A stretch of DNA of 64,000 bases from positions 1-64,000 of the forward strand of contig JANPJS010000140.1 in the NCBI GenBank assembly GCA_031425655.1. The letters run 5' to 3'. This document shows, piece after piece, positions 2,809 through 58,110 of the stretch. Origin of the DNA: Abditibacteriaceae bacterium (GTDB lineage Bacteria; Armatimonadota; Abditibacteriia; Abditibacteriales; Abditibacteriaceae). Position 1 is the stretch's first letter, and every line of letters begins with the position of its first letter. Made by a program: the position numbers and the translations under genes. The notes under the pieces were generated by a model that saw only the letters and a list, made by a program, of their open reading frames with translations, did not search any database and was not told the DNA's origin.

Positions 2809-2900
2809 ATGAATCAAGCTCGGATAACTTACGACGCCATTATCGTCGGCGGCGGGCACAACGGCTTGGTGGCGGCGAGTTATTTGGGCAAGGCGGGAAA
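2809..2900 (+). pseudogene. 5' remnant of the FAD oxidoreductase gene, fused in frame to the next CDS
   Basis: MNQARITYDAIIVGGGHNGLVAASYLGKAG duplicates the N-terminus of 6661-8217. Confidence 0.85.
2829..2900 (+). repeat. Direct repeat DR1, copy a (copy b at 6681-6752)
   Basis: 72 bp, 69/72 identical by manual alignment. Confidence 0.95.
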
Positions 2901-2910
2901 CACACTCCGC

Positions 2911-5142
2911 ATGGCCCGCTTGCTCCTGGCACTTTTTGCCATCCATTTATTCGCTGCCTCTGCCCAAGGCTTGGAGCCGAACTTCAATCGAGACATCCGT
3001 CCCATTCTCTCGGAAAACTGTTTCGCGTGCCACGGCCCGGACGAGAAGCATCGCAAGGCGGGGTTGCGACTGGATACGAAGGAAGGCGCTTTTGGAAAGT
3101 CCAAGAGTGGAGCCATGGCGATTGTGCCCGGCAACTTGAAGAAAAGCGAGATGTGGGCGCGACTTATCACGACCGATAAAGACGAGGTGATGCCGCCGCC
3201 GGACTCACACAAGACGCTCACTGTCGTGGAAAAAGAACGCGTCCGAAAATGGATCGAGTCCGGTGCAGCATACGAAAAACACTGGGCATTTGTGCCGCCG
3301 CAGCGCCCGCCGGTGCCGGTTGGTGCGGCGAAAAATGCGATTGACGCATTTATCATTGAACGATTGAAACGTGAGGGACTCGCGCGCTCACCGGAGGCGG
3401 AGAAAGAACGGCTGCTGCGACGGGTGACATTGGATCTGACCGGCTTGCCGCCGACGCCAGAGGAGTTGGACGCGTTTCTTGCGGAAAAAACACCCGGTGC
3501 ATACGAGAGGCAAGTGGACCGCCTTCTGGTGTCGCCGCGTTTCGGCGAGCGTATGGCCGTTCGCTGGCTGGATTTGGCGCGCTATGGCGATACGAACGGA
3601 TATCTGCACGACCATCGGCGCACCAGTTGGCCCTGGCGTGACTGGGTAATCAAAGCCTTCAACGACGACATGCCTTTTGATCGCTTCGTCATCGAGCAGC
3701 TTGCGGGCGATCTTCTTCCCGGTGCCACCCCGGAGCAGGTGCTGGCCACGGCCTTCTCCCGGAATCATCTCATCACCACGGAGGGCGGCACCATTGCCGC
3801 AGAATATCTCAATGAATACGCTGCCGACCGTGTGCAAACGGTGGGCACTGCCTTCATGGGGCTGACTTTCAACTGCAACCGCTGTCACGATCACAAATTC
3901 GATCCGCTGCCGCAGGACGATTTTTATGGCATGCAGGCGTATTTCAATTCCATCACCGAAAAGCACGAAGAGAATAACAAGGCCGTGGCCTATCCGCCCA
4001 TGATTACTGTGCCTTCGCCCTTGGCACCCCTGGGGCCTAAAGCACAGGTCATGGTGATGCAGGAGGCGGCCACTGCGACTCCCACCTTTGTGCTGGCACG
4101 CGGTCAATACGATCAACCCGACAAAGCCCGCCCGGCACTGCGCCGCCCGCCCCAGGTGCTCGGTGCTGCTTTGGAGGATGCGCCAAAGAACCGGCTCGGT
4201 CTCGCGCAATGGATGGTGTCGTCGCGGAATCCACTGCTCGCACGCGTGACGGTGAACCGGCTCTGGCAGCAACTCTTTGGGACGGGGCTGGTGAAGACGG
4301 TGGATGATTTCGGGATGCAAGGCGAATATCCATCGCACCCGGAACTGCTCGACTGGCTCGCGGTGGAGTTTCGCGAAGGCCCGAAACCGTGGAGCGTGCG
4401 CCACATCATGCGCCAGATGGTGACGAGTGCGACTTATCGCCAGTCATCGCGAATCAACCCCAGAACAACCGCCAAAGATCCGGAAAACCGCTTGTTCACA
4501 CACTTTCCACGGCAGCGGCTCACAGCCGAAGAAATTCGTGATCAGGCCCTGTTCATAGCCGGCTTGTTGTCGGAGGAACTGGGTGGAGAACCGGTGTTTC
4601 CCTATCAACCGCCAGGGCTTTGGGAGGAACGTTCCAACGGAAGCAGTAACACAAAAACATACAAACGCAGCACAGGCCCGGCGCTCCACCGCCGCAGCTT
4701 ATATACGTTCGTAAAACGCACGTCGCCTCCCGCGCTGATGGCCATTTTTGATGCGCCTGATCGCACAGCCTGCAGCGTTCGACGGACGCCGACGAACACG
4801 CCGCTCCAAGCGCTCGCCGCGCTCAACGACGAACAATTCCTCGAATGTGCGAAGCTGCTCGCCGCCCGCACGCTGAAAGAAAACGGCAACACGCCCACCC
4901 GCCTCACGCGGCTTTACCGCCGCGCCACCGGGAGGACTCCGTCCGAGGCCGATCTTAAAACGCTGGGCAAAGGACTCGATGGCCTCCTCGTTCGCTATCG
5001 CGCCGCGCCGGAGGATGCTGCCGCGCTGCTCCAGCAAGGCGTGACTCCCGCTCCGGCGGATATCGAAAAACCAGAGCTTGCCGCTTGGATGCTTATCGCC
5101 AACACCGTGCTCAACTTGGACGCGACTCTCGTGCGCGACTGA
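2911..5142 (+). CDS. Planctomycete cytochrome c / DUF1549 / DUF1553 protein
   Basis: Signal peptide MARLLLALF..AQG; FNRDIRPILSENCFACHGPD; RRVTLDLTGLPP; WLDLARYGDT; CNRCHDHKFDP; PSHPELLDWLA; TNTPLQAL. Confidence 0.92.
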   Translation: MARLLLALFAIHLFAASAQGLEPNFNRDIRPILSENCFACHGPDEKHRKAGLRLDTKEGAFGKSKSGAMAIVPGNLKKSEMWARLITTDKDEVMPPPDSHKTLTVVEKERVRKWIESGAAYEKHWAFVPPQRPPVPVGAAKNAIDAFIIERLKREGLARSPEAEKERLLRRVTLDLTGLPPTPEELDAFLAEKTPGAYERQVDRLLVSPRFGERMAVRWLDLARYGDTNGYLHDHRRTSWPWRDWVIKAFNDDMPFDRFVIEQLAGDLLPGATPEQVLATAFSRNHLITTEGGTIAAEYLNEYAADRVQTVGTAFMGLTFNCNRCHDHKFDPLPQDDFYGMQAYFNSITEKHEENNKAVAYPPMITVPSPLAPLGPKAQVMVMQEAATATPTFVLARGQYDQPDKARPALRRPPQVLGAALEDAPKNRLGLAQWMVSSRNPLLARVTVNRLWQQLFGTGLVKTVDDFGMQGEYPSHPELLDWLAVEFREGPKPWSVRHIMRQMVTSATYRQSSRINPRTTAKDPENRLFTHFPRQRLTAEEIRDQALFIAGLLSEELGGEPVFPYQPPGLWEERSNGSSNTKTYKRSTGPALHRRSLYTFVKRTSPPALMAIFDAPDRTACSVRRTPTNTPLQALAALNDEQFLECAKLLAARTLKENGNTPTRLTRLYRRATGRTPSEADLKTLGKGLDGLLVRYRAAPEDAAALLQQGVTPAPADIEKPELAAWMLIANTVLNLDATLVRD

Positions 5143-5155
5143 CCGCAAAACGACA

Positions 5156-6622
5156 ATGCACCCACTTCACGATCAATTTTTCAACATCAACCGCCGACAG
5201 ATGCTCAAAGGCGCGGCGGCAGGCGGACTTGCTTTTCTGGGCGGCCCGGCCCTTTCGCAATTGCTCGGCACAGACGCCGCCGCCGCACCCGGTCAGAAAG
5301 CAGGGCTTCCCGGTTTCCCCAACTTTGCACCCAAAGCCAAGCGCGTGATTCATCTCTACATGGAGGGCGCTCCGTCGCAGCTCGACACGTTCGACCACAA
5401 GCCCGGCTTGCAGGAGATGTTCGATAAAGACCTGCCGCCCTCGGTGCGCGGCTCGCAGCGGCTCACCGGCATGACCTCCGGGCAGGCGCGCTTTCCCATT
5501 GCCCCTTCGATCTTCGGATTCAGCAAACACGCGAATCAGCAGGATGGCCTGTGGGTTTCCGATCTTCTCAAACAAACGGGTGGAATGGCAAAAGAGATTT
5601 GCGTGGTCAAGTCCATGATGACCGAGCAGATCAACCACGGCCCCGGCGTGACCTTCATGCAGACCGGCCACCAACTGCCGGGCAGGCCGTCCATCGGCGC
5701 GTGGCTCTCGTATGGGCTGGGCAGTGCCAATGCCGATCTGCCGACGTTTGTGGTCATGATCAGTCAGGGGCGAGGACAAATGCAGGCGCTGTTTTCGCAC
5801 CTGTGGGGCGCGGGTTTTCTGCCGGGCGAACATCAGGGAGTGCAGTTCCGTGCCGGGAGCGACCCGGTGCTTTTTCTCAATGACCCCAAAGGCATGCGCC
5901 GCGAAGACCGCCGATGGGTTCTCGACATGATCGCCGACCTGAACCACCGCGAGGCGGAGAAAAACGGCGACAGCGAGGTGCTCGCGCGCATCGCACAATA
6001 CGAAATGGCCTTCCGGATGCAAGCCAGCGTGCCCGATCTGACCGATTTTAAGAGTGAAACCGAAGCCACGCTCAACATGTATGGCCCGGACGTGCGCAAG
6101 CCCGGCAGCTACGCCTACAACTGCCTCATGGCCCGGCGTATGGCAGAACGTGGCGTGCGGTTTATTCAGCTCTACCATCGCGGCTGGGATCATCACGGCA
6201 GCGTGGTCAAGGATCTGCCACTGCAATGCCAAGACGTGGATCAGCCGCAGGCGGCGCTGCTCCAAGACTTGCGCCAGCGCGGCCTGCTCGATGAGACGCT
6301 GGTGGTTTGGGGCGGCGAGTTTGGCCGCACCGTTTACGGACAGGGCCAACTGACCAAAACCCAATATGGCCGCGATCATCATCCGCGTTGCTTCTCGATG
6401 TGGCTCGCCGGAGGCGGCATCAAAGGCGGTATTTCCTACGGCCAGACCGACGAATTTTCCTACAATATCGCAGAAAACCCCGTCTCCGCGCACGACTTGC
6501 ACGCCACCATGCTGCACTGTCTGGGCATAGATCACGAACGATTTACCTACAAAACACAGGGGCTCGACATGAAGCTCACGGGAGTCGAACCCGCCCGCGT
6601 CGTCAAAGAGATTCTGAATTGA
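5156..6622 (+). CDS. DUF1501 family protein (Tat signal)
   Basis: NRRQMLK twin-arginine motif; FAPKAKRVIHLYMEGAPSQLDTFD; GWDHH; WGGEFGRT; GRDHHP. Confidence 0.92.
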   Translation: MHPLHDQFFNINRRQMLKGAAAGGLAFLGGPALSQLLGTDAAAAPGQKAGLPGFPNFAPKAKRVIHLYMEGAPSQLDTFDHKPGLQEMFDKDLPPSVRGSQRLTGMTSGQARFPIAPSIFGFSKHANQQDGLWVSDLLKQTGGMAKEICVVKSMMTEQINHGPGVTFMQTGHQLPGRPSIGAWLSYGLGSANADLPTFVVMISQGRGQMQALFSHLWGAGFLPGEHQGVQFRAGSDPVLFLNDPKGMRREDRRWVLDMIADLNHREAEKNGDSEVLARIAQYEMAFRMQASVPDLTDFKSETEATLNMYGPDVRKPGSYAYNCLMARRMAERGVRFIQLYHRGWDHHGSVVKDLPLQCQDVDQPQAALLQDLRQRGLLDETLVVWGGEFGRTVYGQGQLTKTQYGRDHHPRCFSMWLAGGGIKGGISYGQTDEFSYNIAENPVSAHDLHATMLHCLGIDHERFTYKTQGLDMKLTGVEPARVVKEILN

Positions 6623-6660
6623 TCAACAGCGCGGACTACTCCATCACCAGAAACATGCAC

Positions 6661-8217
6661 ATGAAACAAAATCAGTCGAATTACGACGCCATCGTTGTCG
6701 GCGGCGGGCACAACGGCTTGGTGGCGGCGAGTTATTTGGGCAAGGCGGGAAAATCGGTGCTGTTGCTGGAAGCAGAGGGCGAACTGGGCGGGGCCACGAG
6801 CAGCGCGCGGCCTTGGCCCGAATACGAGGCGCGGCTTTCGCGCTACGCCTATTTGGTGTCGCTGCTGCCCGATAAAATCGTGGCGGAGTTGGGCATCAAT
6901 TTTAAGACGCTTGAGCGCAAAGTCGCCTCTTACACGCCGTATCAGCGGGATGGCCGCGACGATGGTCTGCTGATTTCCACGGAGTGGGACGAAGCGAGCG
7001 CGAGCAGCTTCCGGCGGCTGACCGGCTCGGAGCGCGAAGGCACCGCATGGCGCGAGTTCTACGCGGAAATCGGCAAACTGGCGCAGCACTTCGCGCCGAG
7101 CTTGTTGCAGCCGCTCAAAAGCGCGGCGCAGCTCCAAGCCGAAATCGGCTTGCCGCGACTGTGGCGCGAATTAATGGAAGTGCCGATTGGCGAAGTCATT
7201 CGCCAGCGATTCGGCGATGACTTGGTGCGCGGCGTGGCGCTGACGGATGCGCTGATTGGAACTTTCGTTTGTGCCGACGATTTGCAGGCCAATCGTTGTT
7301 TTCTCTATCACCTGATTGGCAACGGCACCGGCCAGTGGCGCGTGCCGCAGGGCGGCATGGGCGCTCTGGTCAAAGAACTGCATCGCATCGCCGCCTTGCA
7401 CGGCGTGGAAATCAAGCTCCACGCCAAAGTTGCCGCGCTGGAAAGCGGCCCGCCGGGTGTTCGCATCCAAACGGAATCAGGCGAAAGCTACGCTGCCAAG
7501 GACCTGCTTTTTGCCGCTGCACCGCAACATCTGGCGCGTTTGCGCGGGCAAGAGGTGGCGCAGTCGTTAGAGGGTTCGCAACTGAAAATCAATATGCTGC
7601 TAACGCGCCTGCCGCGCCTCAAGTCGGGCGTGGACGCGCGACTCGCTTTTGCGGGCACGTTTCATGTCAATGAAAGCTATTCCCAACTGGAAGCCGCTTA
7701 CACCGGCGCTCGCGCTGGCGAGATGCCGCTGCCGCTGCCACTTGAACTGTATTGCCACACGCTGACCGATTCCAGCATTCTTTCGGCAGAGTTGAACGTG
7801 CAAGGCTTTCAAACGCTCACGCTGTTTGGATTGCACACGCCCGCGCAGCTCTTCGATGCGAACCCCGAACGGGCCAAGTCACTGGCCACAGAGCGCGCCC
7901 TTGCGAGTTTGAATCAGTATTTGCTCGACCCCATCGAATCCGTCCTCGCGCCCTGCCGCGATGGCTCGCAGGCCATCGAAGTGAAAACGCCACTTGATTT
8001 GGAAAAGGACATCGCTTTGCCGCGCGGCAATATTTTCCATCGCGACCTGGATTTTCCTTTCCTTGATGACGAAGCGGCGGGCGCAGAGCGGCCAATCTGG
8101 GGCGCAGAAACCGACGACGCGCATATTTATCTCGCCGGTGCGGGCGCACGGCGCGGCGGCGGCGTCAGCGGCATCGCCGGTCATAACGCCGCGATGGCGT
8201 TGCTGTCCAAGGATTAG
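6661..8217 (+). CDS. Phytoene-desaturase-like FAD/NAD(P)-dependent oxidoreductase
   Basis: YDAIVVGGGHNGLVAASYL Rossmann motif; LGGA; GGMGAL; GNIFH; GGGVSGIAGHNAA. Start at 6655 or 6661. Confidence 0.88.
   Translation: MKQNQSNYDAIVVGGGHNGLVAASYLGKAGKSVLLLEAEGELGGATSSARPWPEYEARLSRYAYLVSLLPDKIVAELGINFKTLERKVASYTPYQRDGRDDGLLISTEWDEASASSFRRLTGSEREGTAWREFYAEIGKLAQHFAPSLLQPLKSAAQLQAEIGLPRLWRELMEVPIGEVIRQRFGDDLVRGVALTDALIGTFVCADDLQANRCFLYHLIGNGTGQWRVPQGGMGALVKELHRIAALHGVEIKLHAKVAALESGPPGVRIQTESGESYAAKDLLFAAAPQHLARLRGQEVAQSLEGSQLKINMLLTRLPRLKSGVDARLAFAGTFHVNESYSQLEAAYTGARAGEMPLPLPLELYCHTLTDSSILSAELNVQGFQTLTLFGLHTPAQLFDANPERAKSLATERALASLNQYLLDPIESVLAPCRDGSQAIEVKTPLDLEKDIALPRGNIFHRDLDFPFLDDEAAGAERPIWGAETDDAHIYLAGAGARRGGGVSGIAGHNAAMALLSKD
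6681..6752 (+). repeat. Direct repeat DR1, copy b
   Basis: Matches 2829-2900 at 69/72. Confidence 0.95.
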
Positions 8218-8226
8218 ACTTTTCCC

Positions 8227-8961
8227 ATGAAATTTGCAATGCTTCTCGTAGTTTTGTTCTGCTTCCCCGCGTTCGCGGCAAAAGCCCCGCTGCCCACGGC
8301 TCACACCACGCGCGACATCGAAGGTTGGAAAATTCGCGTGGACGACCGACTGCTGCAAGGCGACGGCGCGGCGCAGGGCGAACGAGCCTTGAAACTGCTC
8401 GCGTCGCGGCTCGTCGCCATCACCATCGTGGTGCCGGAAAAATCGCTGGCCAAGCTGCGCGCCATCACCATCCAGCTCGATTTGAACCATGGCGGTCTGC
8501 GCGCGATGCAATATCACCCCTCTGCCGGCTGGCTGAAGAACAACGGCTACAGCGAGGCGCTGGCTAAGTGCGTCCACATTCCGGAGGTGAGCGATTTCCT
8601 CAACCCGTCGGAGAATCTCCGAATGCCGTGGGTCGTGCTGCATGAACTGGCGCACGGGTTTCATGATCAGGCCATCGGATTCGATGACGCCCGCGTGACC
8701 GCCGCCTGGAAAAAGTTTTGCGACAGCGGGAAATACAAATCCGTCCTCACCAGCCTTGGCCGTATGCGCGAACACTACGGGCTGACCGACCAAAAGGAGT
8801 TTTTCGCCGAAATGACCGAGAGCTATTTCGGCTCGAACGATTTCTTCCCCTTCGTTACCGGCGAGTTGAAGCAGGCCGAGCCGGAGATTTTCGCGCTGCT
8901 GGCTGAAATCTGGGGGCCGCTTCCCGGTTTCGCACCACCAAAACCCAAGGACAAGCCATGA
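8227..8961 (+). CDS. Secreted zinc metallopeptidase-like protein (HExxH)
   Basis: Signal peptide; VVLHELAHGFH with downstream EFFAE third-ligand-like motif. Confidence 0.75.
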   Translation: MKFAMLLVVLFCFPAFAAKAPLPTAHTTRDIEGWKIRVDDRLLQGDGAAQGERALKLLASRLVAITIVVPEKSLAKLRAITIQLDLNHGGLRAMQYHPSAGWLKNNGYSEALAKCVHIPEVSDFLNPSENLRMPWVVLHELAHGFHDQAIGFDDARVTAAWKKFCDSGKYKSVLTSLGRMREHYGLTDQKEFFAEMTESYFGSNDFFPFVTGELKQAEPEIFALLAEIWGPLPGFAPPKPKDKP

Positions 8962-9016
8962 AGCGCATTCTCATTTCCATAATCGCCTTAGCTGCGACGA
9001 ATTGCGGCAACGCGGC
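8916..9016 (+). repeat. Direct repeat DR2, copy a (copy b at 17112-17212)
   Basis: 101 bp, 95/101 identical; spans a stop/start overlap (PLPGFAPPKPKDKP* / MKRILI.IIALAATNCG.AA). Confidence 0.95.
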
Positions 9017-11960
9017 GGAACTCGCCATTCCCCAGCCGGTGCAAAAGGTGCTGGGCAGCTATTGCTACGACTGCCACGACGCAGACACGCAAAAGGGCGA
9101 GGTGCGCCTCGATAATCTGAAAAACCTCACGCTGGAGGCGCGGCTCGACCTTTTGAATCGCGTGCAGGAACAGGTGTATTTCGGCGAGATGCCGCCCAAG
9201 AAGAAGGCGCAGCCCACCGAGGCTGAGCGCGGCTTGCTCACGGAGTGGCTGGGGAAAGAGCTGCGGGCGCATGGCGCTTCGAATCTCGAAGAAAAGCTGC
9301 GAAAACCGGAGTTCGGCAACGTGGTGGACCACGGGAAATTGTTCTCCGGGAAATACAAAGACCTGCCCGGCTCCACGCCCGACCGGCGCTGGCTCATCAG
9401 CGAGTTTATTTTCGATGCGAAAATGAACCGGCTGCTGGAATACACCCCGCAGCGGGACATAGACCGCAAGCGCCAGCGGGTCATCGGCGATAACAACAGG
9501 GGTGGAATTCTCACCAATCCCTTTCTCCTGCCGAACCACAGTGGCGTCCGCTACTACGACACCACGCCACTGGATGGCGGGCATCTGCTTACGATGCTCT
9601 CCAACGCGAGGGAGGTTTCGAGGTTCATGATCGAGCGATCAAGAACCTCGCCGTATCTCCCGGCGCTCACGAAAATCATGGCAGCGGAGTGGGGGCACGA
9701 AAAAGTCCTCGCTGCGCGCGAGACCTATCTCAAAGCCAGCATCGACTCTCTGCTGCGTGAGCTTTACCAAGAGAAACACGACGAACTGCTGCCAAAGTTC
9801 GTCCCGACCACGCTTGAGCTGCCCAAGGAAGCTGCGCGGGCCGATGGCAAGAAAGTGAGTTTGCAGGATTTTGACAGCGCCGCCCCCAAGGGCGATTTGC
9901 CGGAAATCTGGGCTGCTATACGGAGAAATGAAGCAAACGAACAGAGCGACGCGGCGCTCATCGCGAAATGCGAGCGGGATTGGTTCATCTTCGGCATCAA
10001 TGACCGGCATATTCAGCTCCGCCTGAATTTCATGCACTTTTACTTGGATGAACTGCGGAAGCGTATGCCGAAGGACGTTCCCGCACCTCCAAAACCTCCA
10101 GCCGAGCCGGAACTGGCCATCCTCAAGGCGGCGCTTCTGAAGCATCGCAAGGCTGGGGACACTTACAGTGTTATCATTGCCAAGTGCATGGCCGAATGGA
10201 CGGAGCAGTTCAAACAAGAGCGCCTGAAGGCGGGCGGGATAAGCGAAGAGGCGACGGGAAATCTCGTGGACCAGCTGTTCTCCAAAATTTTTGAGCGCCT
10301 GCCTTCGTCGCAGGAAAAAGCCGAATACGTCGCGCTGGCGTATTACCCGGAGTTGGGCCATGAGAAGGCCATCAGGAAACTGGTGGAGACGATGCTGCTG
10401 CGGACGGATTTTGTGTATCGTCAGGAGTTCGGCGAAGGACAGGCGGACGAACATGGGCGCAGGATGCTCTCGCCGCGTGACGCCAGTTATGCCCTCGCCT
10501 ACGCGCTCACCGACAGCTCGCCGGACAAGCAACTGACGGCGGCTGCGGCCACCGGAAAATTGATCACGCGGGAAGATTACCGCCGTGAAGTCGAGCGGAT
10601 GCTCAAAGAGCGCGACCAGTTTTACATCGTGGAGGAGGCAGTGGAACGGGGCGGGGCCGACAGCTTCACCAATCTGCCGATTAGGAAGCTCCGCTTTTTT
10701 CGCGAGTTTTTCGGCTACCCCGGAATGCTCACCATTTTTAAGGACATCAAGCGCTTCGGCGGCAATTTCGGAGCAACGGCTGCACCGCTGGTGAGCGAGG
10801 CGGACAAACTGGTGGAGCACATCCTCTTGCAGGACCGGAATGTCTTTGAGCGGCTCCTGACCACGGAGGAGTTTTATGTCTATCATTCCGGGGACAACAA
10901 GGTGATGGCGGCTGCGTCCGAGAATATTCGCAAACACTACGAGTATTTCAAAGACAAGGACTGGCAGAATTTCGATGTGGCAAAATTTAAGGAACACGCG
11001 GCATTTCTCAAAGAGACGCCAATGCGCGGAATGCACAAATACAACCTCGATACCGATAGCGGGCTTCAGAATTTATTGCCAGGCTTCAAAACAAACATGA
11101 AGAGCTACTCGATCCGTCTGGATAAAGGTCAGACTGCCGCCGTTCCCTTCCCTGCATTCTCCTCCCACGACGCGACTGAGGCGATGACTCGCTCAGGGAA
11201 GGCGATGTATGGAGTCGAAGCGGCTAAGTCCTTCAATATCGACATCTCAAACTGGAATTACCCGGTCGAACAACCAGCTAAAGTGGAGCATCGCAGAGGC
11301 ATCCTCACCCACCCGGCGTGGCTGATTGCCTTCGCCAAAAATTCCGAAACAGACCCCGTTCATCGTGGCAAATGGGTGCGGGAGAAGCTGCTCGCAGGCA
11401 CCGTGCCGGATGTCCCTATCACCGTGGATGCCAAAATCCCCGAAGACCACACCAACACGCTCCGTAGCCGCCTCGCTAAGGCGACCGAAGTCGAATCCTG
11501 CTGGAAATGCCACGAGCTCATGAACCCGCTCGGAAACAGCTTTGAGATGTATGACGACTTCGGGCGTTTCCGCACCGAGGAGTCCCTCGAACACCCGGAT
11601 AACTTGGTCAAAAAAATGCCTGAAAAAGGCCCAGTCCAGGACGATTTGCGGGATATTTACAAGACGCTGCCAGTGGATACCAAAGGCAAACTCGCTGGAA
11701 GCGGCGACCCGCTGCTCGACGGCGAAGTCCGCGATGCCATTGACCTCGCCGTGCGCCTCTCCAAGGCCGCCACGGTTCGCCAGTCCATCATTCGCCACGC
11801 CTTCCGTTACTTCATGGGGCGCAACGAGTTCCTCTCGGACTCGAAGACCCTGATGGACGCCGACGAAGCTTACGTCAAAAGCGGCGGCAGCTTTGACGCG
11901 GTCATCGTCTCGCTCCTGACTTCCGATTCATTCATTTACCGCAAGCCCAACACCGGATGA
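8958..11960 (+). CDS. Di-haem DUF1588/DUF1592-type planctomycete cytochrome c protein
   Basis: CYDCH and CWKCH; GEMPP; RGILTHPAWL; TDPVHRGKWVREKLL; IRHAFRYFMGRNE; SDSFIYRK. Confidence 0.85.
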   Translation: MKRILISIIALAATNCGNAAELAIPQPVQKVLGSYCYDCHDADTQKGEVRLDNLKNLTLEARLDLLNRVQEQVYFGEMPPKKKAQPTEAERGLLTEWLGKELRAHGASNLEEKLRKPEFGNVVDHGKLFSGKYKDLPGSTPDRRWLISEFIFDAKMNRLLEYTPQRDIDRKRQRVIGDNNRGGILTNPFLLPNHSGVRYYDTTPLDGGHLLTMLSNAREVSRFMIERSRTSPYLPALTKIMAAEWGHEKVLAARETYLKASIDSLLRELYQEKHDELLPKFVPTTLELPKEAARADGKKVSLQDFDSAAPKGDLPEIWAAIRRNEANEQSDAALIAKCERDWFIFGINDRHIQLRLNFMHFYLDELRKRMPKDVPAPPKPPAEPELAILKAALLKHRKAGDTYSVIIAKCMAEWTEQFKQERLKAGGISEEATGNLVDQLFSKIFERLPSSQEKAEYVALAYYPELGHEKAIRKLVETMLLRTDFVYRQEFGEGQADEHGRRMLSPRDASYALAYALTDSSPDKQLTAAAATGKLITREDYRREVERMLKERDQFYIVEEAVERGGADSFTNLPIRKLRFFREFFGYPGMLTIFKDIKRFGGNFGATAAPLVSEADKLVEHILLQDRNVFERLLTTEEFYVYHSGDNKVMAAASENIRKHYEYFKDKDWQNFDVAKFKEHAAFLKETPMRGMHKYNLDTDSGLQNLLPGFKTNMKSYSIRLDKGQTAAVPFPAFSSHDATEAMTRSGKAMYGVEAAKSFNIDISNWNYPVEQPAKVEHRRGILTHPAWLIAFAKNSETDPVHRGKWVREKLLAGTVPDVPITVDAKIPEDHTNTLRSRLAKATEVESCWKCHELMNPLGNSFEMYDDFGRFRTEESLEHPDNLVKKMPEKGPVQDDLRDIYKTLPVDTKGKLAGSGDPLLDGEVRDAIDLAVRLSKAATVRQSIIRHAFRYFMGRNEFLSDSKTLMDADEAYVKSGGSFDAVIVSLLTSDSFIYRKPNTG

Positions 11961-11979
11961 AAACCCAAAAGGACACACA

Positions 11980-13374
11980 ATGAACACCAGAAGAGAATTT
12001 CTCAAATCAACAATCGTGGGTGCCGGAGCACTCTCGCTCACGCCGTGCCTCAAGGCATTTGGTGCCGAGCCTGCGGCCAATGGATTCCCCAAGCGCTTTA
12101 TCTTCATTCGCAAATCCAACGGCGAGCGACCGAACGAAGTAGCGCCGGTCAATTTCAGTGCGAAGGACAAAGCTCTCGATCTCAAGAAGCAGCCGCTCGA
12201 AGTGGACATCCGCGACCTTGAACTTCCGGTCTATCTGCGCGCCCTCGACAAGCACAAGGCGGACATGTGCATCCTCCAAGGCCTCTCCTCCAAGATGAGT
12301 GAGAACGGCCATTATTCTTACTCCTCTGTGATGGGCGCTTTCCATTCGAACCGCAACTCACTCAGCGGCATCAAGCGCGCCACCATTGATTTCGAACTTG
12401 CGAAGCTCTTTCCCTCGCCCTTCGGCCACGTCGAGTTGTCCCTCACGGGTGATTACAACGGCTACCGCACCGGCATCGCGTCCGGCTACTCCGCATCCGG
12501 CCCGCACCAGCGGAACTACTGCTACGCCGACCCGGAGACTGCCCATAACGAACTCTTTCGCGCCGTGACCAATCCCATCGCGGTGAACTCCGACAACAAG
12601 ATGCTCAACTTCCTCGAAAAAGACGAGTCCTTCAAGGAGCGTATCCTCGAAGGCTACGAGAAGCAGAAACTCAGCAGCCACATCAGCTCTATCGAAGGCA
12701 TCCGCGAGCGCAACTTGAAGCTCTCAAAGATGGCTGGCTCGATGGAAAAACACATCCCGCAACTTGCGAAGGCCCATGCCAACGGAGGGCCGACCGCCAA
12801 CGCGGTGGAAAAAATGAATGCCATGACGGACATCCTTTGTGCCGCGCTCATCACTGGCCTGACAAACGTGGTGACCTACGCCATTGACGACCTCGGTTCG
12901 CCGATCACAGGCCTGCCCGGCATTGAGACCGAGCGCCTCAATCTCCACTCCATCGGGCACGGTTCAGGAGTCCGCACCTTCACTGCCGACGAAGTCCGTG
13001 AAAAAATCCGCATCGCGCAAATACACCAAATCTTCCGTATCGTCGAGCGGCTCAAAGCCACGCCCGAAGGTAAAGGCACCATGTTCGACAACACTATGAT
13101 CATGTATTTCCCCGAAGGCGGCGAAACGCATCACTCCACTGGCGTCGAGGCACCCTTCGTCGTCATGGCGGGAAACAACTGCAAGTTGAACATGACAGGC
13201 CGCTACATTCGCCTGCCCTACCACGGCAGCGAAGGCCACAAAACCATCGGCAATTGGTATACGACCCTGCTCAACGCCCACGGCAATCCCATCAAGCACT
13301 ACGGCGACCTCGATCTCGAAATGTCGCGTTTGAAGCTGGATCAACTCGGCGCGATTAAACAGTTTCTCGCCTGA
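11980..13374 (+). CDS. DUF1552 family protein (Tat signal)
   Basis: TRREFLK; PKRFIFI; LKATPEGKGTMFDNT; directly follows a DUF1588-type gene. Confidence 0.85.
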   Translation: MNTRREFLKSTIVGAGALSLTPCLKAFGAEPAANGFPKRFIFIRKSNGERPNEVAPVNFSAKDKALDLKKQPLEVDIRDLELPVYLRALDKHKADMCILQGLSSKMSENGHYSYSSVMGAFHSNRNSLSGIKRATIDFELAKLFPSPFGHVELSLTGDYNGYRTGIASGYSASGPHQRNYCYADPETAHNELFRAVTNPIAVNSDNKMLNFLEKDESFKERILEGYEKQKLSSHISSIEGIRERNLKLSKMAGSMEKHIPQLAKAHANGGPTANAVEKMNAMTDILCAALITGLTNVVTYAIDDLGSPITGLPGIETERLNLHSIGHGSGVRTFTADEVREKIRIAQIHQIFRIVERLKATPEGKGTMFDNTMIMYFPEGGETHHSTGVEAPFVVMAGNNCKLNMTGRYIRLPYHGSEGHKTIGNWYTTLLNAHGNPIKHYGDLDLEMSRLKLDQLGAIKQFLA

Positions 13375-13559
13375 TTCAAAATAGAGCCTGCGTTGAACTC
13401 AAGCGTGGGCGGTATGTGGATTCACGACCATGCTCATCACGCTTTCGAGCGCAAAAGCCCAGTTGGCTGCGGAAAATCCCGCTGCCGGAGGGGGAAAAGC
13501 AGCCAGCATCTGCAATGCGACACGTTAATTCGACCGAACGGACGGACGGGAAAGCTGAA

Positions 13560-15998: not shown

Positions 15999-16180
15999 TT
16001 GCAACACTCCAATCCGCCAAACAACAATCGGATGACAAAGGCATTCTTATGATAGGCATCAAAAAGGACAACAAGGTGGTCTATCGCTTGGTTCTTGCGA
16101 GAGTTCACAAGGCGATTGTTAGCGCGAACCAGAACAACTCTCTCTCCAGTTTTGGTCCTACGTCCAGCCCCGTCCAGAAA

Positions 16181-17157
16181 ATGCAAATGATGGGACCGCT
16201 TAAAGTCGCCTGCGTGGTTGTGCCACTGGTCGCCATGATGGGAATGAGCGGTTTGACCGGTGAACCGGCCCAACTCAGTGACCATCCCCGCACGGACAAA
16301 GGCGGATTCATTGATGAACATGTTCACTTTGATGATCGCCACGCTGGCGATTTGGACAAGGTCGCCGAATGGATGAAGTCCAACAACGTGCAGCGATGCA
16401 TCAATCATCCTCTGGCTCAAATCCGAACGCGGAACGAAGACGAACGTAAACAGATGCTTGAGAATTATGCGAAATACAAGGGACGCATTGATCGCTTCTG
16501 TATCATTTTTCCCGATGAAGTGAACAGCGTGGAAGAAGCCGTCAAGATTCTGACCAAAGAAAAGCAGGATGGGGCCATCGGCTTCGGTGAACACTATGGC
16601 GTAGGGCTGAAGTTCGACGATCCCAAGAATCTGCGGCTGTATGAGGCCTGCCAAAAGGTGGGCTGCCGGTGATGTTTCACATTGACCAGAACAAAAACAT
16701 GGATGAAAAAGGTCTCCCGCGCGTTGAGCACGTCCTGAAAACCTTCCCCAACGTCATACTTATTGCTCACTCGTTCTGGTGGAAACACCTTTCCGACGGG
16801 ACTTGTGACCGGCTTCTTAAAACCTATCCGAATTTGTATGCCGATATCTCGGCCACGGTTAGGATGAGCCTCATCGGCCGCGACAAGGATTTTGCGAGAG
16901 CGTTTTTCATTCGCAATGCCGACAAGTTGATTTTTGGCTCCGACAGTGGCTGGTGGTCATTAGGCAAAGATAAGGACGGGCAGGACAAGAAACCAGCTCC
17001 GGAGTTTGCGCTGATTGATGAACTCAATCTTCCGTCCGACGTGGCAGACAAGATCTGCCGGGGCAATGCCGAACGGTTGTTTTGGGGAGGCAAACCGACC
17101 GATTCCACTCCGCCGCTTCCCGGTTTCGCACCGCCAAAACCCAAGGACAAGCCATGA
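16181..17157 (+). pseudogene. Amidohydrolase-family protein with a 1-nt frameshift near 16660
   Basis: FIDEHVH and GAIGFGE in the first frame; LPVMFHID, LIAH, NLYADIS, LIFGSD and NAERL in the second. Start uncertain. Confidence 0.8.
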
Positions 17158-17212
17158 AGCGCATTCTCATTTTCATAATCGCCCTTGCCGCGACGAATTG
17201 CGGCCACGCGGC
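17112..17212 (+). repeat. Direct repeat DR2, copy b
   Basis: Matches 8916-9016 at 95/101. Confidence 0.95.
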
Positions 17213-23538: not shown

Positions 23539-23584
23539 CGAGCCGGGATAATCTCCCAATCCGTCCACTGCTGAGGCAACCACT

Positions 23585-38147: not shown

Positions 38148-38538
38148 ATTTGCTATGCGAAAACAGGTGAGTATGTAGTAGGCCGCGCGGCTGAATTGCG
38201 CCAAAGCCTCTATCCAATGGCTGCGGGCCGAATGGCTCGGCCAAAACCGTGACACTGCGGGCACCGTCAAACTGCGATTCGCCGCCGTTGTCTCGACGGC
38301 AGTTTTAGGACAGCGTCTCCAGCCTTTGCGGGATTTAGTGACGAGTGTTAGCCTGCGGGAACCATTGTTATAGGCGTCTGGTAGAATTTCACACGTTGGC
38401 ACTTGAGGTAGTGCGGCGAACACCTGAAGTGAGGACAGATTGTCAAAATAAATCATCCCGCTGGGTCAATTCATGCACTTGTGTCGGCTCAATCTCCTGT
38501 TTTTCCCGAATCTGCAATCAGAACACAAGCCAACGCTT

Positions 38539-41042: not shown

Positions 41043-41155
41043 CTGGCTATCGTTGAGGCAAACTTGATGCGTTGTGGATGGTCATAAACCGGATTCCTCC
41101 TCGTGGGTCGCTTCGTGGAGGTCATCGATATCGCAGCATCGCGCTGTTACATCTC

Positions 41156-41281
41156 ATGCAATTCCCACCTCGCCTTGCTTCGCTCATCGCGCTCGTTGCG
41201 TTCCTGACGCCCTTCATCGTTGATTTGTCGCAATTGCCCGCTGCGAAACCCAAAGCGGCAAAAGCGATTCCCTCGCCATGA
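41156..41281 (+). pseudogene. Chimeric mini-ORF: signal-peptide remnant joined to the oxidoreductase C-terminal remnant
   Basis: MQFPPRLASLIALVAFLTPF|IVDLSQLPAAKPKAAKAIPSP*; its TGA overlaps the ATG at 41278. Confidence 0.7.
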
Positions 41282-55194: not shown

Positions 55195-56106
55195 ATGAAA
55201 CACATCTTCACTTTCCTCCTCGCCACACTCTTCGCCGCTGCCAGCGCCGACGCCAAGCCGCTCAAGGTATTCATCCTCGCCGGACAGTCGAACATGGAAG
55301 GCCAAGGCGTCGTATCCATGGATGGAGAGAGGGACTACAATGGCGGCAAGGGCAATCTGGTCTGGTCTATGCAGAACTCGAAGAGCGCCGAAAAGATGAA
55401 GCGCCTCAAAGACGAGAAGGGCGAATGGGTTGTGCGGGAGGATGTCCAGATATCGTTCAAAGTCCACGACAAGGTGCGCAAAGGAGGCTTGACCGTCGGT
55501 TATACCGGCTATGGCGGGAGCAGTCACATCGGACCAGAACTGGGGTTCGGGTTGGTCATGGGCGACCACTTCGAGGAACCGGTGCTGCTGATCAAGACGG
55601 CCTGGGGCGGCAAGAGCCTGTTCGTTGACTTCAGGCCGCCAAGTTCCGGTGGCCAGGTCGGGCCGTATTACACGAAAATGGTGGAAGAGGTGCGCGCTGC
55701 TTTGGCAGATCTCGGCGGCCAGAAATATGAAATAGCAGGTTTTTACTGGCAGCAGGGCTGGAACGACATGGTTACCCAGCCGGCTATTCCCGAATATGCG
55801 CGGAATCTCGTCAACTTGGTCAGCGATCTCCGCAAGGAGTTCAAATCGCCGAAAATGCCGGTGGTTGTGGGCGAACTTGGCAACGGCGGGCCGGTGACCA
55901 GCGGTGCCATGTTTGAATTCAGAAAAGCGCAGGAAGAAGGAACGAAGCAGATCAAAAATGCGCTGTTCATCAAGACCACCGACTTCGCACGTCCTGCAGA
56001 ACTCTCGCCCAATCCCACACACGGGCACCATTGGTTCGGCAATGCGGAAAGCTACTTTCTTATCGGCGAAGCGGCCGGTGAGGGAATGAAGAGCCTTTTG
56101 AAGTAA
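55195..56106 (+). CDS. Secreted SGNH/SASA acetylesterase
   Basis: KVFILAGQSNMEG; IGPELGFG; IKTAWGGKSL; WQQGWND; GHHWFGN. Confidence 0.88.
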   Translation: MKHIFTFLLATLFAAASADAKPLKVFILAGQSNMEGQGVVSMDGERDYNGGKGNLVWSMQNSKSAEKMKRLKDEKGEWVVREDVQISFKVHDKVRKGGLTVGYTGYGGSSHIGPELGFGLVMGDHFEEPVLLIKTAWGGKSLFVDFRPPSSGGQVGPYYTKMVEEVRAALADLGGQKYEIAGFYWQQGWNDMVTQPAIPEYARNLVNLVSDLRKEFKSPKMPVVVGELGNGGPVTSGAMFEFRKAQEEGTKQIKNALFIKTTDFARPAELSPNPTHGHHWFGNAESYFLIGEAAGEGMKSLLK

Positions 56107-56120
56107 TTCTTTTCCGTTAG
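56076..56120 (+). repeat. Direct repeat DR6, copy a (copy b at 58066-58110)
   Basis: 45 bp, 40/45 identical; covers GEGMKSLLK* plus 14 nt of downstream flank. Confidence 0.92.
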
Positions 56121-56188
56121 AACCTGTATCATCTCGCCAAGGCACGTCCCCACGGAACGTCCCCAACACCGCAGTATCAAAAATGACC

Positions 56189-57982
56189 ATGAAACCAACC
56201 GCAATCCTAACCGCAGCGCTGCTGTGCGTCCTCTCGTCGATCTCCTTCGCCAAGCCGCTCAAGGTCTTCATCATGTCGGGCCAGTCCAACATGGAGGGGC
56301 ATGCCGAAATCAGAACTTTTGACTATATCGGCAAGGATCCACTGACTGCCCCGATTCTCAAGGAGATGCGCAATCCCGATGGAACGCCACGGGTCTGTGA
56401 CAAGGTCTGGATGTCCTATTTGACCGGCCCTTATGACGGCAGTGCCAATGGCGAGGGGCTGGGAAAATTGACCGCCGGCTTTGGCGCACGTGGAAACCAA
56501 CCTACCAAGGATGGCGGAAAGATTGGGCCTGAGTTCACCTTCGGAATCTACATGGAGAAAGGGCTGAACGAGCCGATTCTGATTATCAAGACCGCGTGGG
56601 GAGGCAGGTCACTCAACACCGAATTCCGTCCGCCCAGTGCCGGGCAATACAAGCTGCCCAAGGAGATTCAGGAAGTGTGGGACACGTATCCCCAGGGCGC
56701 GCACGGGGTTCCCAAACTGGAGGACCGGAAAAAATGGCAGGATGATAAGGATGCCGCCTCCGGTGTGTTTTACCGAATGATGATTGACCATGTGAAAAAG
56801 GTGCTGGCAGACCCCAAGCGGGTCTGCCCCGCATACGATCCCAAGGAGGGATACGAACTGGCCGGTTTTGTCTGGCTTCAGGGTTTTAACGACTTGGTTG
56901 ATGGGACTACTTACCCCGGCCCCAACAAACCCGGAAAATACGATCTATATTCAGACCTGCTGGCCAAGTTCATTCGCGATGTTCGCAAAGACCTATCAGC
57001 CCCAAAGATGCCATTCGTGATCGGCGTGCTGGGAGTCGGCGGTGAAAACGAAAACGAGGTTTTCCGCAAAGCCATGGCCGCACCGGCCGATATGCCAGAG
57101 TTCAAGGGAAATGTGATTGCTGTTCCGACCGCTCCCTTCTGGGATCATGACATTGCCGCCGCAGAACCCAAGCAGGGCGCGTATAACAACATCGTTAATA
57201 TGGCTCACACCCTTAAAAAGGATGGCACTCTCGACAGCGAATGGAAATGGGAAAATTACTGGAAGCCGCTTGGCAAGCCTCTGCCAGAGGAACGGAGCTG
57301 GCGTTTCACTACGATTGATGCCACCGAAAAGAAGGACACGCTGGAAAAATACACCGATCGGCGGTTCCGCGACATCAAGCTGCCAGCCGGGACGGAGAAT
57401 TGGCACATGCCCGACTTCGATGACAGCAAATGGGCGGAAGGCAAGGCCCCCATTGGAAAGGGCGTCTGGAAACACAGCGGAATCACCTTGGACAAATTCC
57501 CCTCAAAATGGGGAGAGAGCGAATTTCTGCTGATGCGCACAACTTTTGAAGTCGAAGACCTCAACTACGATTCGTATCGCATTGCGGTTTTGGCAAGACA
57601 AGGATTCCATGTCTATTTGAACGGACACAAGATACACACCTACATCTGGTGGCAGGACAGGCCTCAATATGGTTCCATTGTCCTCGGAGCAGATCAGATC
57701 AAGCATTTGAAAAAGGGGAAGAACGTATTGGCGGTCTATGCCAATGACCAATATGACCTTAAATCCCCGGAACACTATGCAGCGATGGATGTGCGGATTG
57801 AGGGTATCACCAAAGCAGACCAAGGGAAGCTCGATCTCGCATTGGAGGAAGTCCTTTCGCCCAAAGACAGGGAGGCCCTCAAAGGCGCTTCCAATGGCGG
57901 TTACCACTATTTTGGCAGCGCCAAGATCTTCGCGCAGATGGGTAAGGCATTTGCCGAGGCCTTATTGCCTTTGCAGAAATAA
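56189..57982 (+). CDS. Secreted SGNH/SASA acetylesterase with an inserted domain
   Basis: KVFIMSGQSNMEG; IGPEFTFG; IKTAWGGRSL; WLQGFND; GYHYFGS. Confidence 0.85.
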   Translation: MKPTAILTAALLCVLSSISFAKPLKVFIMSGQSNMEGHAEIRTFDYIGKDPLTAPILKEMRNPDGTPRVCDKVWMSYLTGPYDGSANGEGLGKLTAGFGARGNQPTKDGGKIGPEFTFGIYMEKGLNEPILIIKTAWGGRSLNTEFRPPSAGQYKLPKEIQEVWDTYPQGAHGVPKLEDRKKWQDDKDAASGVFYRMMIDHVKKVLADPKRVCPAYDPKEGYELAGFVWLQGFNDLVDGTTYPGPNKPGKYDLYSDLLAKFIRDVRKDLSAPKMPFVIGVLGVGGENENEVFRKAMAAPADMPEFKGNVIAVPTAPFWDHDIAAAEPKQGAYNNIVNMAHTLKKDGTLDSEWKWENYWKPLGKPLPEERSWRFTTIDATEKKDTLEKYTDRRFRDIKLPAGTENWHMPDFDDSKWAEGKAPIGKGVWKHSGITLDKFPSKWGESEFLLMRTTFEVEDLNYDSYRIAVLARQGFHVYLNGHKIHTYIWWQDRPQYGSIVLGADQIKHLKKGKNVLAVYANDQYDLKSPEHYAAMDVRIEGITKADQGKLDLALEEVLSPKDREALKGASNGGYHYFGSAKIFAQMGKAFAEALLPLQK

Positions 57983-58065
57983 CCCCCTTTTGTCCCCCAC
58001 GCTAGTCTTCGTCCCGCCCTGCGGGATTAAGACAGACAAGCCGGTCCAGTCACCGGCTCTTTCAA

Positions 58066-58110
58066 CGGTGAGGGAATGAAGAGCCTGTTGAAATAATCCT
58101 TTTACGTGAG
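58066..58110 (+). repeat. Direct repeat DR6, copy b (orphan 3' end of 55195-56106)
   Basis: Matches 56076-56120 at 40/45. Confidence 0.92.

Follow-up and report, generated by a model that had tools for sequence, protein, structure and literature searches.

Gene ends repeated along the locus

The window analysed here comprises positions 1-64,000 (64,000 nucleotides, forward strand) of contig JANPJS010000140.1 (C140) in assembly GCA_031425655.1 of an Abditibacteriaceae bacterium (327 contigs, 5.98 Mb). Six direct repeats (R1 to R6), each enclosing a block of DNA, were verified in this window with the identities given in a preliminary description of the same DNA (69/72, 95/101, 15/17, 40/57, 37/43 and 40/45). 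Their copy-to-copy spacings are 3852, 8196, 3960, 1238, 3158 and 1990 bp, and the six blocks sum to 35.0% of the window, in line with the earlier figure of about 35%. The repeat copies, the genes to which they belong (anchors) and the enclosed genes (cargo) are listed below; G002 is a genome of the same genus, used as the empty-site comparison.

404..2800, + strand: apiosidase-like gene (Pfam); an additional block that G002 lacks and that itself carries no terminal repeat
2829..2900, + strand: R1 upstream copy (69/72), orphan 5' end of a FAD-dependent oxidoreductase gene with its own ATG at 2809
2901..6680, + strand: block 1 cargo, a PSCyt1/PSCyt2/PSD1 gene and a DUF1501 gene (Pfam), plus a new oxidoreductase leader
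6655..8217, + strand: block 1 anchor, intact FAD-dependent oxidoreductase (Pfam), containing the R1 downstream copy (6681-6752)
8227..8961, + strand: block 2 anchor, Peptidase_M90-like gene (Pfam)
8916..9016, + strand: R2 upstream copy (95/101), incoming allele of the M90 end and of a PSCyt3 gene start
9017..17111, + strand: block 2 cargo, remainder of PSCyt3 gene A, DUF1552 gene A, SASA esterase and frameshifted amidohydrolase (Pfam)
17112..17212, + strand: R2 downstream copy, displaced resident M90 end and start of resident PSCyt3 gene B (17154-19610)
19625..19641, + strand: R3 upstream copy (15/17), a 17-nt DUF1552-type start in frame with PSCyt3 gene C
19642..23584, + strand: block 3 cargo, PSCyt3/PSD gene C and DUF1552 gene C (Pfam); missing in G002
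23585..25003, + strand: DUF1552 gene B, resident partner of PSCyt3 B, containing the R3 downstream copy
35203..35259, + strand: R4 upstream copy (40/57), signal-peptide start of an intact 385-aa gene without Pfam family
36441..38147, + strand: FAD-dependent oxidoreductase (Pfam), containing the R4 downstream copy (36441-36497) and the R5 upstream copy (38058-38100); block 5 anchor
38101..41215, + strand: block 5 cargo, AccI-like endonuclease and N6 methyltransferase (Pfam); GC 0.53
41216..41258, + strand: R5 downstream copy (37/43), orphan FAD oxidoreductase 3' end running into a LamG-domain gene
56076..56120, + strand: R6 upstream copy, 3' end of the SASA gene 55195-56106, anchor of block 6
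56121..58065, + strand: block 6 cargo, a second SASA esterase gene (Pfam); GC 0.54
58066..58110, + strand: R6 downstream copy (40/45), orphan SASA 3' end preceding a DUF6288 gene

All six repeats lie at gene termini, as had been proposed. R1, R2, R5 and R6 are clear pairs, R3 is credible by position alone, and R4 is an old signal-peptide-start pair. For R1, R2 and R6, no comparable third copy was found in the 5.98-Mb genome; genome searches gave one weaker third match for R4 (47 nt at 83%) and one for R5 (40 nt at 82%). The partner copy of R3 was not retrieved by BLAST at E<=0.05 and is within chance on sequence alone. Exact runs inside these repeats reach at most 56 nt. The mismatches, previously described as largely synonymous in the younger pairs, are so in R1 (2/3), R2 (4/6), R5 (6/6, of which two may lie in another gene) and R6 (2/2 coding), and are mostly non-synonymous in R4.

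The R1 upstream copy is fused in frame to the following PSCyt gene, with a sharp right edge at 2900, the amidohydrolase of block 2 is frameshifted near 16660, and at the R5 joint the block 5 cargo closes with the truncated start of a signal-peptide gene.

As reported earlier, no recombinase is visible in the window (0 among the 36/36 proteins scanned with Pfam); the 6 PF00589 matches (on six contigs) and 6 PF00239 matches of the genome all lie on contigs other than C140. The proposed functional analogy with an integron does not hold, with six separate insertion sites in the window, no IntI, no attC and no cassette boundary or motif; cargo may moreover terminate within a broken gene, as at the R5 joint. 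A repeat of the source genome that we label attC-like from its form has no match on C140.

Empty sites in a congener and scars across the genome

Contig C329 of G002 is colinear with source contig C122 and the window, and lacks five blocks, including the repeat-bracketed blocks 1 to 3, whose flanking genes are adjacent there; the empty-site alleles expected in relatives thus exist for these three blocks, and the locus is larger than in G002 by ~24 kb in five steps. Because two of the five extra blocks carry no terminal repeat, scarred insertions represent only the visible subset. C122 also carries a 64-nt internal PSCyt fragment.

At the block 1 site of G002, DUF1501A directly adjoins the oxidoreductase, and the cargo is missing. 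The block 2 cargo is missing as well: the R2 downstream copy agrees with G002 at 6/6 diagnostic sites, one of them just 21 nt into the repeat, and the upstream copy differs from G002 at all six. The 3' part of the M90 gene (8500-8900) is 96.8% identical to G002 and resident-like up to the repeat; within the M90 part of R2 the two copies differ at 1/46 nt, so that donor and resident are indistinguishable there. The R3 upstream copy sits 14 nt past the PSCyt3 B stop, and in G002 the DUF1552 start follows an identical 14-nt spacer; DUF1552 gene B is 87.7% identical to its G002 counterpart, which PSCyt3 B directly precedes. Segments of the locus share 92-98% identity with G002, against 80-83% for housekeeping genes, a contrast that points to recent exchange between the lineages, as judged from these sequence identities.

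Removal of a block had been said to restore a tidy operon, which is borne out for blocks 1 to 3 only. Block 4, with its 385-aa gene, is also present in G002 (contig C328), and the R4 pair is old and common to both genomes. No empty site or orthologous locus was found for blocks 5 and 6 among 27 genomes; SASA-DUF6288 adjacency occurs in 2/80 distant metagenomic loci. The donor-type arrangement also foreseen in relatives (anchor and cargo with a single repeat copy) was found in no genome.

Genome-wide, 158 local repeats are direct and 9 inverted, and orphan gene ends lie on the predicted side in 50/54 cases (3' ends downstream, 37/38; 5' ends upstream, 13/16; p=4e-11). About 47 unrelated anchor genes, housekeeping genes among them, are involved in this one genome and both gene ends are used; serial orphans behind a single anchor were found for 3/47 anchors. 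The repeats have one sharp edge, on the cargo side. Scars have a median length of 67 nt (2/50 above 130 nt), and very short remnants (scores 13-17) were not detectably in excess. On contig C267, a 5' remnant is fused to a 3' remnant across a 4-nt overlap; microhomology at the illegitimate joint is 4 nt and exact there and ~5 nt and imperfect at R5, these being the two assessable joints; 0-10 nt would be expected for homology-facilitated illegitimate recombination.

Differences between copies are mostly synonymous (pN/pS = 0.20): the synonymous share is 156/258 in 43 ungapped pairs, against 37% expected under fresh duplication, and 18/33 among orphan-branch changes in the 12 pairs that have outgroups (p=9e-5 against 0.23 and 0.003 against 0.30). 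This excess, orphan branch included, indicates that the copies were not identical at insertion. Derivation of both copies from one target sequence does not agree with the synonymous excess and the R2 polarity, which indicate two alleles. In 13/43 pairs no run free of synonymous differences reaches 25 nt (12 nt at most in R5, 9 nt in R3), the median of the longest runs being 32 nt, and the longest perfect runs (26.7 against a shuffled expectation of 25.3; 45 pairs) reveal no homogenised stretch.

Cargo across the genome is mostly unrelated to its own anchor and lower in GC (median 0.52 vs 0.567), with NotI-like and methyltransferase genes among its members elsewhere in the genome. No PF00589 or PF00239 match falls inside any of the 50 enclosed segments, and 1/42 scanned cargo proteins is a DDE transposase fragment. 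The joints have no shared motif, no hairpin and no cassette boundary, and the adjoining DNA does not exceed controls in structure (p=0.27, 0.19). Growth had been called orientation-preserving, which is not a rule: cargo is co-oriented with its anchor in 54/71 cases, equal to the background (3086/4086).

Route of insertion and alternative explanations

Additive insertion with displacement of the resident gene end is supported by the G002 empty sites, the 6/6 polarity of R2, the genome-wide polarity and the allele-type divergence. We regard this outcome as very probable, whether reached by a linear route of homology-facilitated illegitimate recombination (HFIR) or by crossover of a circle. The mechanism first put forward is thus supported as to the additive gain of relatives' DNA at a shared anchor, and its linear HFIR route is one candidate. 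Our best reading, which we hold with evenly balanced confidence, is that a relative's DNA was added through one homologous anchor and an illegitimate joint inside the resident gene end.

Linear chromosomal DNA of a related strain or species would enter the cell, probably by natural transformation, carrying an allele of a recipient gene with genes lacking in the recipient after or before it. The shared gene body would be paired by host recombination, presumably dependent on RecA, and the foreign end joined to the resident chromosome by a microhomology-type illegitimate joint 20-190 bp inside the end of the same gene. The anchor would then persist with a donor end, the cargo would be gained, and the resident end would stay on the far side as an orphan and decay. 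A joint falling past the gene end would remove resident DNA without leaving a scar; long remnants were probably lost by later recombination, which would make short terminal scars the visible survivors. In the window, donors may often have borne, at the same spot, a divergent version of the resident module (PSCyt-DUF1501, PSCyt-DUF1552, SASA), whose alleles would be stacked as tandem paralogues. ComEC and DprA are present in the source genome and likewise in 10/14 control genomes, and are therefore no proof of competence.

Consistent with this linear route, the homologous anchor is on one side only, as in an HFIR product (the 50/54 polarity and the single cargo-facing edge), cargo ends are ragged (the truncated start at R5, the double remnant of C267), and in 13/43 pairs the runs free of synonymous differences leave little room for a crossover inside the repeat. 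Against it, experimental HFIR usually deletes ~1 kb of recipient DNA (PMC3240628), and no long donor tract is visible in the M90 body. Runs X3 and X5 contain near-identical pieces of the block 2 cargo, and every contig from them over position 8846 differs in base from the window; these contigs are unlinked and shallow, and hint that the donor tract begins near the repeat. The missing excess of very short remnants, the failure to find a donor-type arrangement and the lack of an empty-site relative for blocks 5 and 6 also count against it. A strong rival, which we consider less probable, is that a donor gene end with its cargo was trimmed, closed into a small circle by an illegitimate joint, and integrated by one crossover in the 30-190 bp that it has in common with the resident gene end, a Campbell-type insertion-duplication. 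The geometry would be identical, yet both copies would be hybrid and the anchor body resident. The resident-like M90 body fits this expectation, the C267 double remnant resembles a circle joint, and the median run of 32 nt also speaks for it. In E. coli, partial anchor-end duplications arose in 56/60 clones by way of a trimmed, recircularised molecule and one crossover, against 4 HFIR clones; they measured 109-950 bp in 14 sequenced clones, and the frequency was given as ten times that of HFIR (PMC3240628). A circular intermediate has been proposed for rhs tip displacement (PMC2935791), and short transfers reportedly may deviate from proposed MEPS limits (PMC13344027). The displaced R2 copy, however, would need a crossover within the first 21 of 101 nt, and R3 (17 nt) and R5 (longest run 12 nt) are very short for a lone crossover. 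Single crossovers favour long repeats, contrary to the scar lengths seen, the copies are not homogenised, and Ku is absent in 4/4 genomes of the genus.

Long target duplications produced afresh, of the restriction-modification (RM) type, or decayed integrase islands whose attP bore a replacement gene end, appear improbable. Islands replacing gene ends are established, as with phage 21 and e14 in icd, and NotI-like and methyltransferase genes occur in other cargo. Blocks 1, 2, 5 and 6 fit the size criteria of an insertion with long target duplication (<20 kb, repeat >30 bp, no mobile-element genes), and R3 falls below the repeat length; block 5, the only one of six with both R and M genes, places its RM pair within a single-locus gene-end repeat of >30 bp, which agrees with the size criteria of PMC2853133. 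This explanation is countered by the synonymous excess, which indicates that the copies already differed at insertion, by ~47 unrelated anchors with both gene ends used, by the near absence of recombinase and transposase genes from the segments, and by joints without motif and cargo that is mostly non-RM. A local origin of the blocks, in which paralogous modules duplicated in tandem and then underwent divergence and deletion, while recombination between repeats removed blocks from G002, is very improbable. It would accommodate the paralogy of the cargo of blocks 1, 2, 3 and 6 to neighbouring genes (66-75% nucleotide identity), the two intact secreted-protein starts joined by R4, and the C122 fragment, which could be what is left of a long duplicate. 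Identity of 94-96% limited to 70-100 nt beside bodies that are ~70% identical or unrelated misfits one duplication, as does the genome-wide cargo, unrelated to its anchors and lower in GC; deletion in G002 should have yielded a hybrid repeat, and G002 equals one copy at 6/6 sites. A strain-chimeric assembly is scarcely credible. The assembly is in 327 contigs, the read sets contain related strains, and among the contigs listed none spans the whole stretch. Contigs of run X1, possibly the source sample and hence not independent, match with 0 differences at depth 11-16 over both anchors and cargo; one reaches from within R1 into the cargo, another crosses the R3 joint with >500 nt on each side, and the R2 downstream joint lies outside the pieces listed from the runs. 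Exact runs within repeats (<=56 nt) are short beside the 141-nt overlap between the contig and its neighbour, which suggests long k-mers. Chimerism is incapable of making remnant-to-cargo joints, nor are polarity and synonymous bias what assembly errors produce.

Significance and comparison with known systems

It is conceivable, on a somewhat less than even footing, that gene-end-anchored additive recombination is a main route by which this lineage gains genes throughout its genome, free of mobile elements and active at any gene end, building the large PSCyt/DUF1501/DUF1552/SASA paralogue clusters by stacking relatives' divergent alleles. If so, the scars would record each acquisition in a datable and polarised way, and would explain first gene gain at recombinase-free hotspots of horizontal transfer. 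Natural footprints of one-sided recombination have so far been argued mostly from single loci (rhs, T6SS, RM); here, a countable, polarised scar is found at ~47 anchor genes of one genome, ordinary genes included. Any assembly can be scored for this signature, and the donor-tract length in the anchor is a prediction separating HFIR from circle integration.

The systems below are compared as described in the cited papers. RM long target duplications share cargo of <20 kb, the absence of mobile-element genes and a single-locus direct repeat of >30 bp, sometimes overlapping a gene 3' end, and occur mostly in naturally competent species (PMC2853133). Block 5 fits this class; the class itself is RM-defined and read as target duplication, whereas most cargo here is non-RM and the copies are two coding alleles. 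In T6SS arrays of Vibrio cholerae, HFIR from a conserved anchor was proposed to add an effector-immunity module, shifting resident DNA, including the effector 3' end, downstream, and those authors also compare the process with integrons (PMC5361080). That work concerns T6SS clusters with one anchor each; here there are many unrelated anchors, including housekeeping genes, 5' and 3' ends, and scars of 30-190 bp. Displacement of rhs C-termini similarly pushes the resident end downstream and leaves strings of fragments, but the new tip is non-homologous and is itself the functional cargo (PMC2935791), unlike the near-synonymous allele end and separate cargo genes here. In E. coli, one-sided homology also gave insertion with partial anchor-end duplication, in that case with an engineered plasmid and identical homology, the 109-950 bp duplications being ascribed to circles and not to HFIR (PMC3240628). 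The S. aureus lpl cluster resembles R2 in that a 3' end and the next 5' start move together as one unit within a cluster of tandem paralogues; one conserved region is common to all its paralogues, whereas every repeat here is unique (PMC2568036). The scar is a variant of two known phenomena, long target duplication and C-terminal displacement; it is no analogue of the integron and implies no new machinery. About a quarter of bacterial transfer hotspots lack integrase or transposase; like the present locus they are gene-rich, hypervariable and integrase-free, with raised recombination of flanking genes, and the explanation given for them is double homologous recombination, by which content is replaced or spread but which does not account for the first joining of a gene (PMC5635113). 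It is this initial joining step of a new gene that the scars described here record.

Repeat pairs of the window and the corresponding locus in a congeneric genome

The G000 assembly comprises 5.98 Mb in 327 contigs, and all 38 genes called on the window contig (C140) lie on the + strand, the longest single-strand run of the genome. The window proteins are mostly secreted and, in a Pfam scan of 36 of them, included PSCyt/PSD modules with DUF1501 or DUF1552 partners, five sulfatases, four SASA esterases, glycosidases and one restriction-modification pair. Two secreted proteins (25047-25907 and 35203-36360) have neither a Pfam nor a PHROGs family; the PHROGs search of 7 window proteins added nothing. 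Two multicopy palindromic elements (35003-35115 and 50880-50995) gave 142 and 38 BLAST rows across the genome on both strands, and the former lengthened the reading frame of sulfatase 33603 compared with G002, a genome of the same genus.

The identities and spacings claimed in the preliminary description for six imperfect direct repeat pairs were reproduced, as was the share of the window that they enclose (about 35% claimed, 35.0% measured). Every repeat is a gene terminus, as had been proposed, and the window repeats are not genome-wide multicopy elements.

Repeat pairs R1 to R6 (start positions of both copies; blocks 1 to 6 are the DNA between them)
R1, 2829/6681: gene start, additional copy on the upstream side
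R2, 8916/17112: end of one gene and start of the next
R3, 19625/23585: gene start, additional copy on the upstream side
R4, 35203/36441: gene start, additional copy on the upstream side
R5, 38058/41216: gene end, additional copy on the downstream side
R6, 56076/58066: gene end, additional copy on the downstream side

R3 by itself has no statistical significance, and R4 pairs two intact signal-peptide starts. In block 2, a frameshift near 16660 divides the amidohydrolase gene (16049-17157), a sign of either a pseudogene or an assembly error; the displaced M90 tail forms the end of the gene's second part.

Among 61 genomes searched, the locus was found in G002 only, whose housekeeping genes are 80-83% identical to those of G000. 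Contig C329 of G002 carries, in 11 kb, the order SASA, PSCyt, DUF1501A, oxidoreductase, M90, PSCyt3 B, DUF1552 B. The same genes occupy about 35 kb in G000 (window and upstream contig C122), the difference being due to five further blocks, namely one of 5.3 kb on C122, one consisting of the apiosidase gene, and blocks 1-3. Three of the five are bounded by terminal repeats and two are not. The expected empty sites were thus recovered for blocks 1-3, whose flanking genes are adjacent in G002, but not for block 4, which is present there; of the next oxidoreductase gene in G002 (contig C328, locus L011, 3900-4200), an FAD oxidoreductase, a 5' stump of 50 codons is left, which continues in frame into an unrelated tail; a different glycosidase gene comes next. 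No locus orthologous to blocks 5 and 6 was found in 27 genomes of the family.

At the 6 sites distinguishing the two copies of R2 (101 nt), G002 agrees with the downstream copy in all cases; the downstream copy is therefore resident and the cargo-attached copy new. DUF1552 B of G002 begins 14 nt past the stop codon of PSCyt3 B, precisely the place that the 17-nt upstream copy of R3 occupies in the window, and this spacing supports R3 as a genuine pair; the G002 spacer resembles the leader of the downstream copy, which blurs the polarity of R3. G002 carries a third allele at R1, so it does not polarise this pair. Taken block by block, the feature is real and has good support at blocks 1-3; it is plausible at blocks 5-6 and old or ambiguous at block 4.

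On C122 (reverse strand, 7908-7971), the contig upstream of the window, a fragment of 64 nt from the interior of a PSCyt gene precedes the start of the same gene; it shares 83% identity with the intact copy and 89% with G002, and is possibly the stump of a formerly long duplicate. Inside single PSCyt genes (17112-19610 and 60777-64000 of the window), the similarity to G002 varies from about 55% to 98% identity per 60-nt step, which is a fine recombination mosaic.

Assembly support was sought in Logan contigs of sequencing runs, leaving aside runs with small word shares. Contigs of X1, which may be the source sample, showed 0 differences at a depth of 11-16 over anchors (the intact genes whose ends are repeated) and cargo alike. 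They cover the remnant-to-cargo joint of R1 and bridge the R3 joint; they end where the two copies of R1, and likewise those of R2, match exactly, leaving these two pairs unphased, and among the matches listed the downstream joint of R2 is absent from the X1 pieces. In X3 and X5, from another study, block-2 cargo pieces differ at 2-5 positions in 385-1265 nt and oxidoreductase pieces are about 87% identical to the window; these unlinked, shallow contigs hint that block-2 cargo is also present in another lineage. No exact block-skipping joint was found in the Logan contigs of four runs (15 listed of 120). The donor and empty-site alleles anticipated in metagenomes did not appear among 80 loci retrieved by the M90 protein (identity at most 82%); in one of these loci a PSCyt3 gene comes after M90.

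Gene-end scars across the genome

Each contig was scanned for repeats confined to one locus, up to 260 nt long and separated by 0.3-20 kb; G000 yielded 158 direct pairs and 9 inverted ones. After removal of 48 direct pairs flanked by colinear paralogues, 110 were left, of which 58 touch a gene terminus. In 54 cases one copy is intact and the other is an orphan, that is, a displaced gene end; 3' orphans lie downstream in 37/38 and 5' orphans upstream in 13/16. The expected side accounts for 50 rows, which come from 47 anchor genes and contain at least one tandem paralogue (on C104). Anchor termini were recognised from their peptides as presumably those of LepA, GlmS, GlnA, CarB, PyrG, ArgG, AhcY, DapB, PpdK and a release factor. 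The repeats have a median length of 67 nt, and the enclosed DNA a median of 1.0 kb and a GC content of 0.52.

In an independent test of the terminal 45 nt of 1687 genes, strong 3' matches numbered 23 on the expected side versus 1 and 3 in two controls. The excess begins at a score of 18; very short remnants (scores 13-17) were not significant, with 41 on the expected 3' side versus 37 and 37 in controls. The window holds four clear cases in 64 kb versus about 8 per Mb in the genome and is a hotspot for scars (p=0.002, though it was picked for this feature). Two consecutive orphan 3' ends stand behind one anchor on C267, C108 and C45 (a glnA-like gene and two further ones), so each of these gene ends has taken an insertion more than once. 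Relatives also have scars of their own, behind glnA in G001 (66 nt, 95%) and behind DUF1552 B in G002 (80 nt, 86%); in 200-kb samples, G003 had 0 and G009 had 2 of the type expected, numbers too small for a rate.

The two copies were compared as alleles in 43 pairs that align without gaps, the 7 rows with gaps being excluded. Synonymous changes made up 156/258 differences (59, 41 and 158 at codon positions 1, 2 and 3), and the pN/pS of 0.20 fits two coding alleles. The claim that mismatches in the younger pairs are largely synonymous agrees with this; in R4 they are mainly non-synonymous. A fresh duplication is improbable, since with one copy conserved and the other decaying neutrally the synonymous share should be about 37%. 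In 12 pairs with an outgroup, 18 synonymous and 15 non-synonymous changes fell on the orphan branch versus 16 and 5 on the anchor branch, with 8 ties, the outgroups being only about 80% identical and individual assignments therefore noisy. From the orphan-branch changes (p=9e-5 to 0.003), we infer that the orphan was coding sequence prior to its decay.

Joints, cargo and possible routes of insertion

No recombinase was found within or next to the blocks, as the preliminary description had noted. Of 86 cargo proteins listed (duplicates included), 42 were scanned; matches include PIN, HNH, a NotI-like endonuclease, methyltransferases, TerC, a bicarbonate transporter and a rhamnosidase, with a DDE fragment in 1/42 and an integrase in none. 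Cargo ends are ragged: block 5 stops in a broken signal-peptide start similar to a gene on C37, and at the C267 joint one gene's start is joined to its neighbour's end across 4 nt. The supposed preservation of orientation was not supported, the cargo showing no orientation bias in excess of background. A junction motif was rejected (no position-specific bias over 50 joints), as were hairpins, significant against shuffled DNA (p=3e-4) yet not in excess of cargo or intergenic controls. In-frame fusion, seen in 4/5 window remnants (R1, R2, R3, R5), is not the rule genome-wide (15/49, p=0.71). ComEC and DprA, which occur in most bacteria, were found in G000; Ku was not found in the genus genomes searched.

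The scar-making product can arise by either of two routes. By homology-facilitated illegitimate recombination (HFIR) of linear DNA, to which we give about an even chance, anchor bodies would pair and the foreign end would be joined just inside the resident gene's end. Alternatively, a fragment would be trimmed, closed into a circle and integrated via one crossover in the shared gene end, a somewhat less probable course here, though favoured by its being the main E. coli outcome with one-sided homology (56/60 clones, PMC3240628) and by the lack of a visible donor tract in M90. The linear route is preferred because the R2 orphan is fully resident, the R3 and R5 repeats are short and repeat lengths are short overall, all of which also speak against the circle; no homogenised crossover stretch was found in the repeat pairs.

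Relation to known systems

The suggested likeness to an integron was not borne out: with no recombinase at the blocks and no joint motif, the scars are neither integron nor integrase island. G000 probably has a true integron away from the window, an attC-like repeat being present on C103 (4922-9848) and about 27 other contigs, with a tyrosine recombinase gene adjoining several copies; a similar array occurs in G003 (locus L196). At C24:14051 an attC-like repeat is truncated at a gene-end scar joint. A contrast case is the 14-kb segment of C30 (3111-17370), a conventional integrative element with 40-nt direct repeats (97.5%) at its edges and three resolvase-family matches inside.

Long target duplication insertion (PMC2853133), displacement of rhs C-termini (PMC2935791) and the growth of T6SS arrays through proposed HFIR (PMC5361080) have the same anatomy as the window scars, which are a variation on this already known insertion anatomy, without dedicated machinery. 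No genome-wide description of such gene-end scars was found in the literature searched, most subscription journals lying outside its scope. Compared with these three systems, the window and genome differ in breadth (dozens of unrelated anchors, at both gene ends), in having an allele signature that was measured, and in that divergent versions of one module are stacked to form paralogue arrays.
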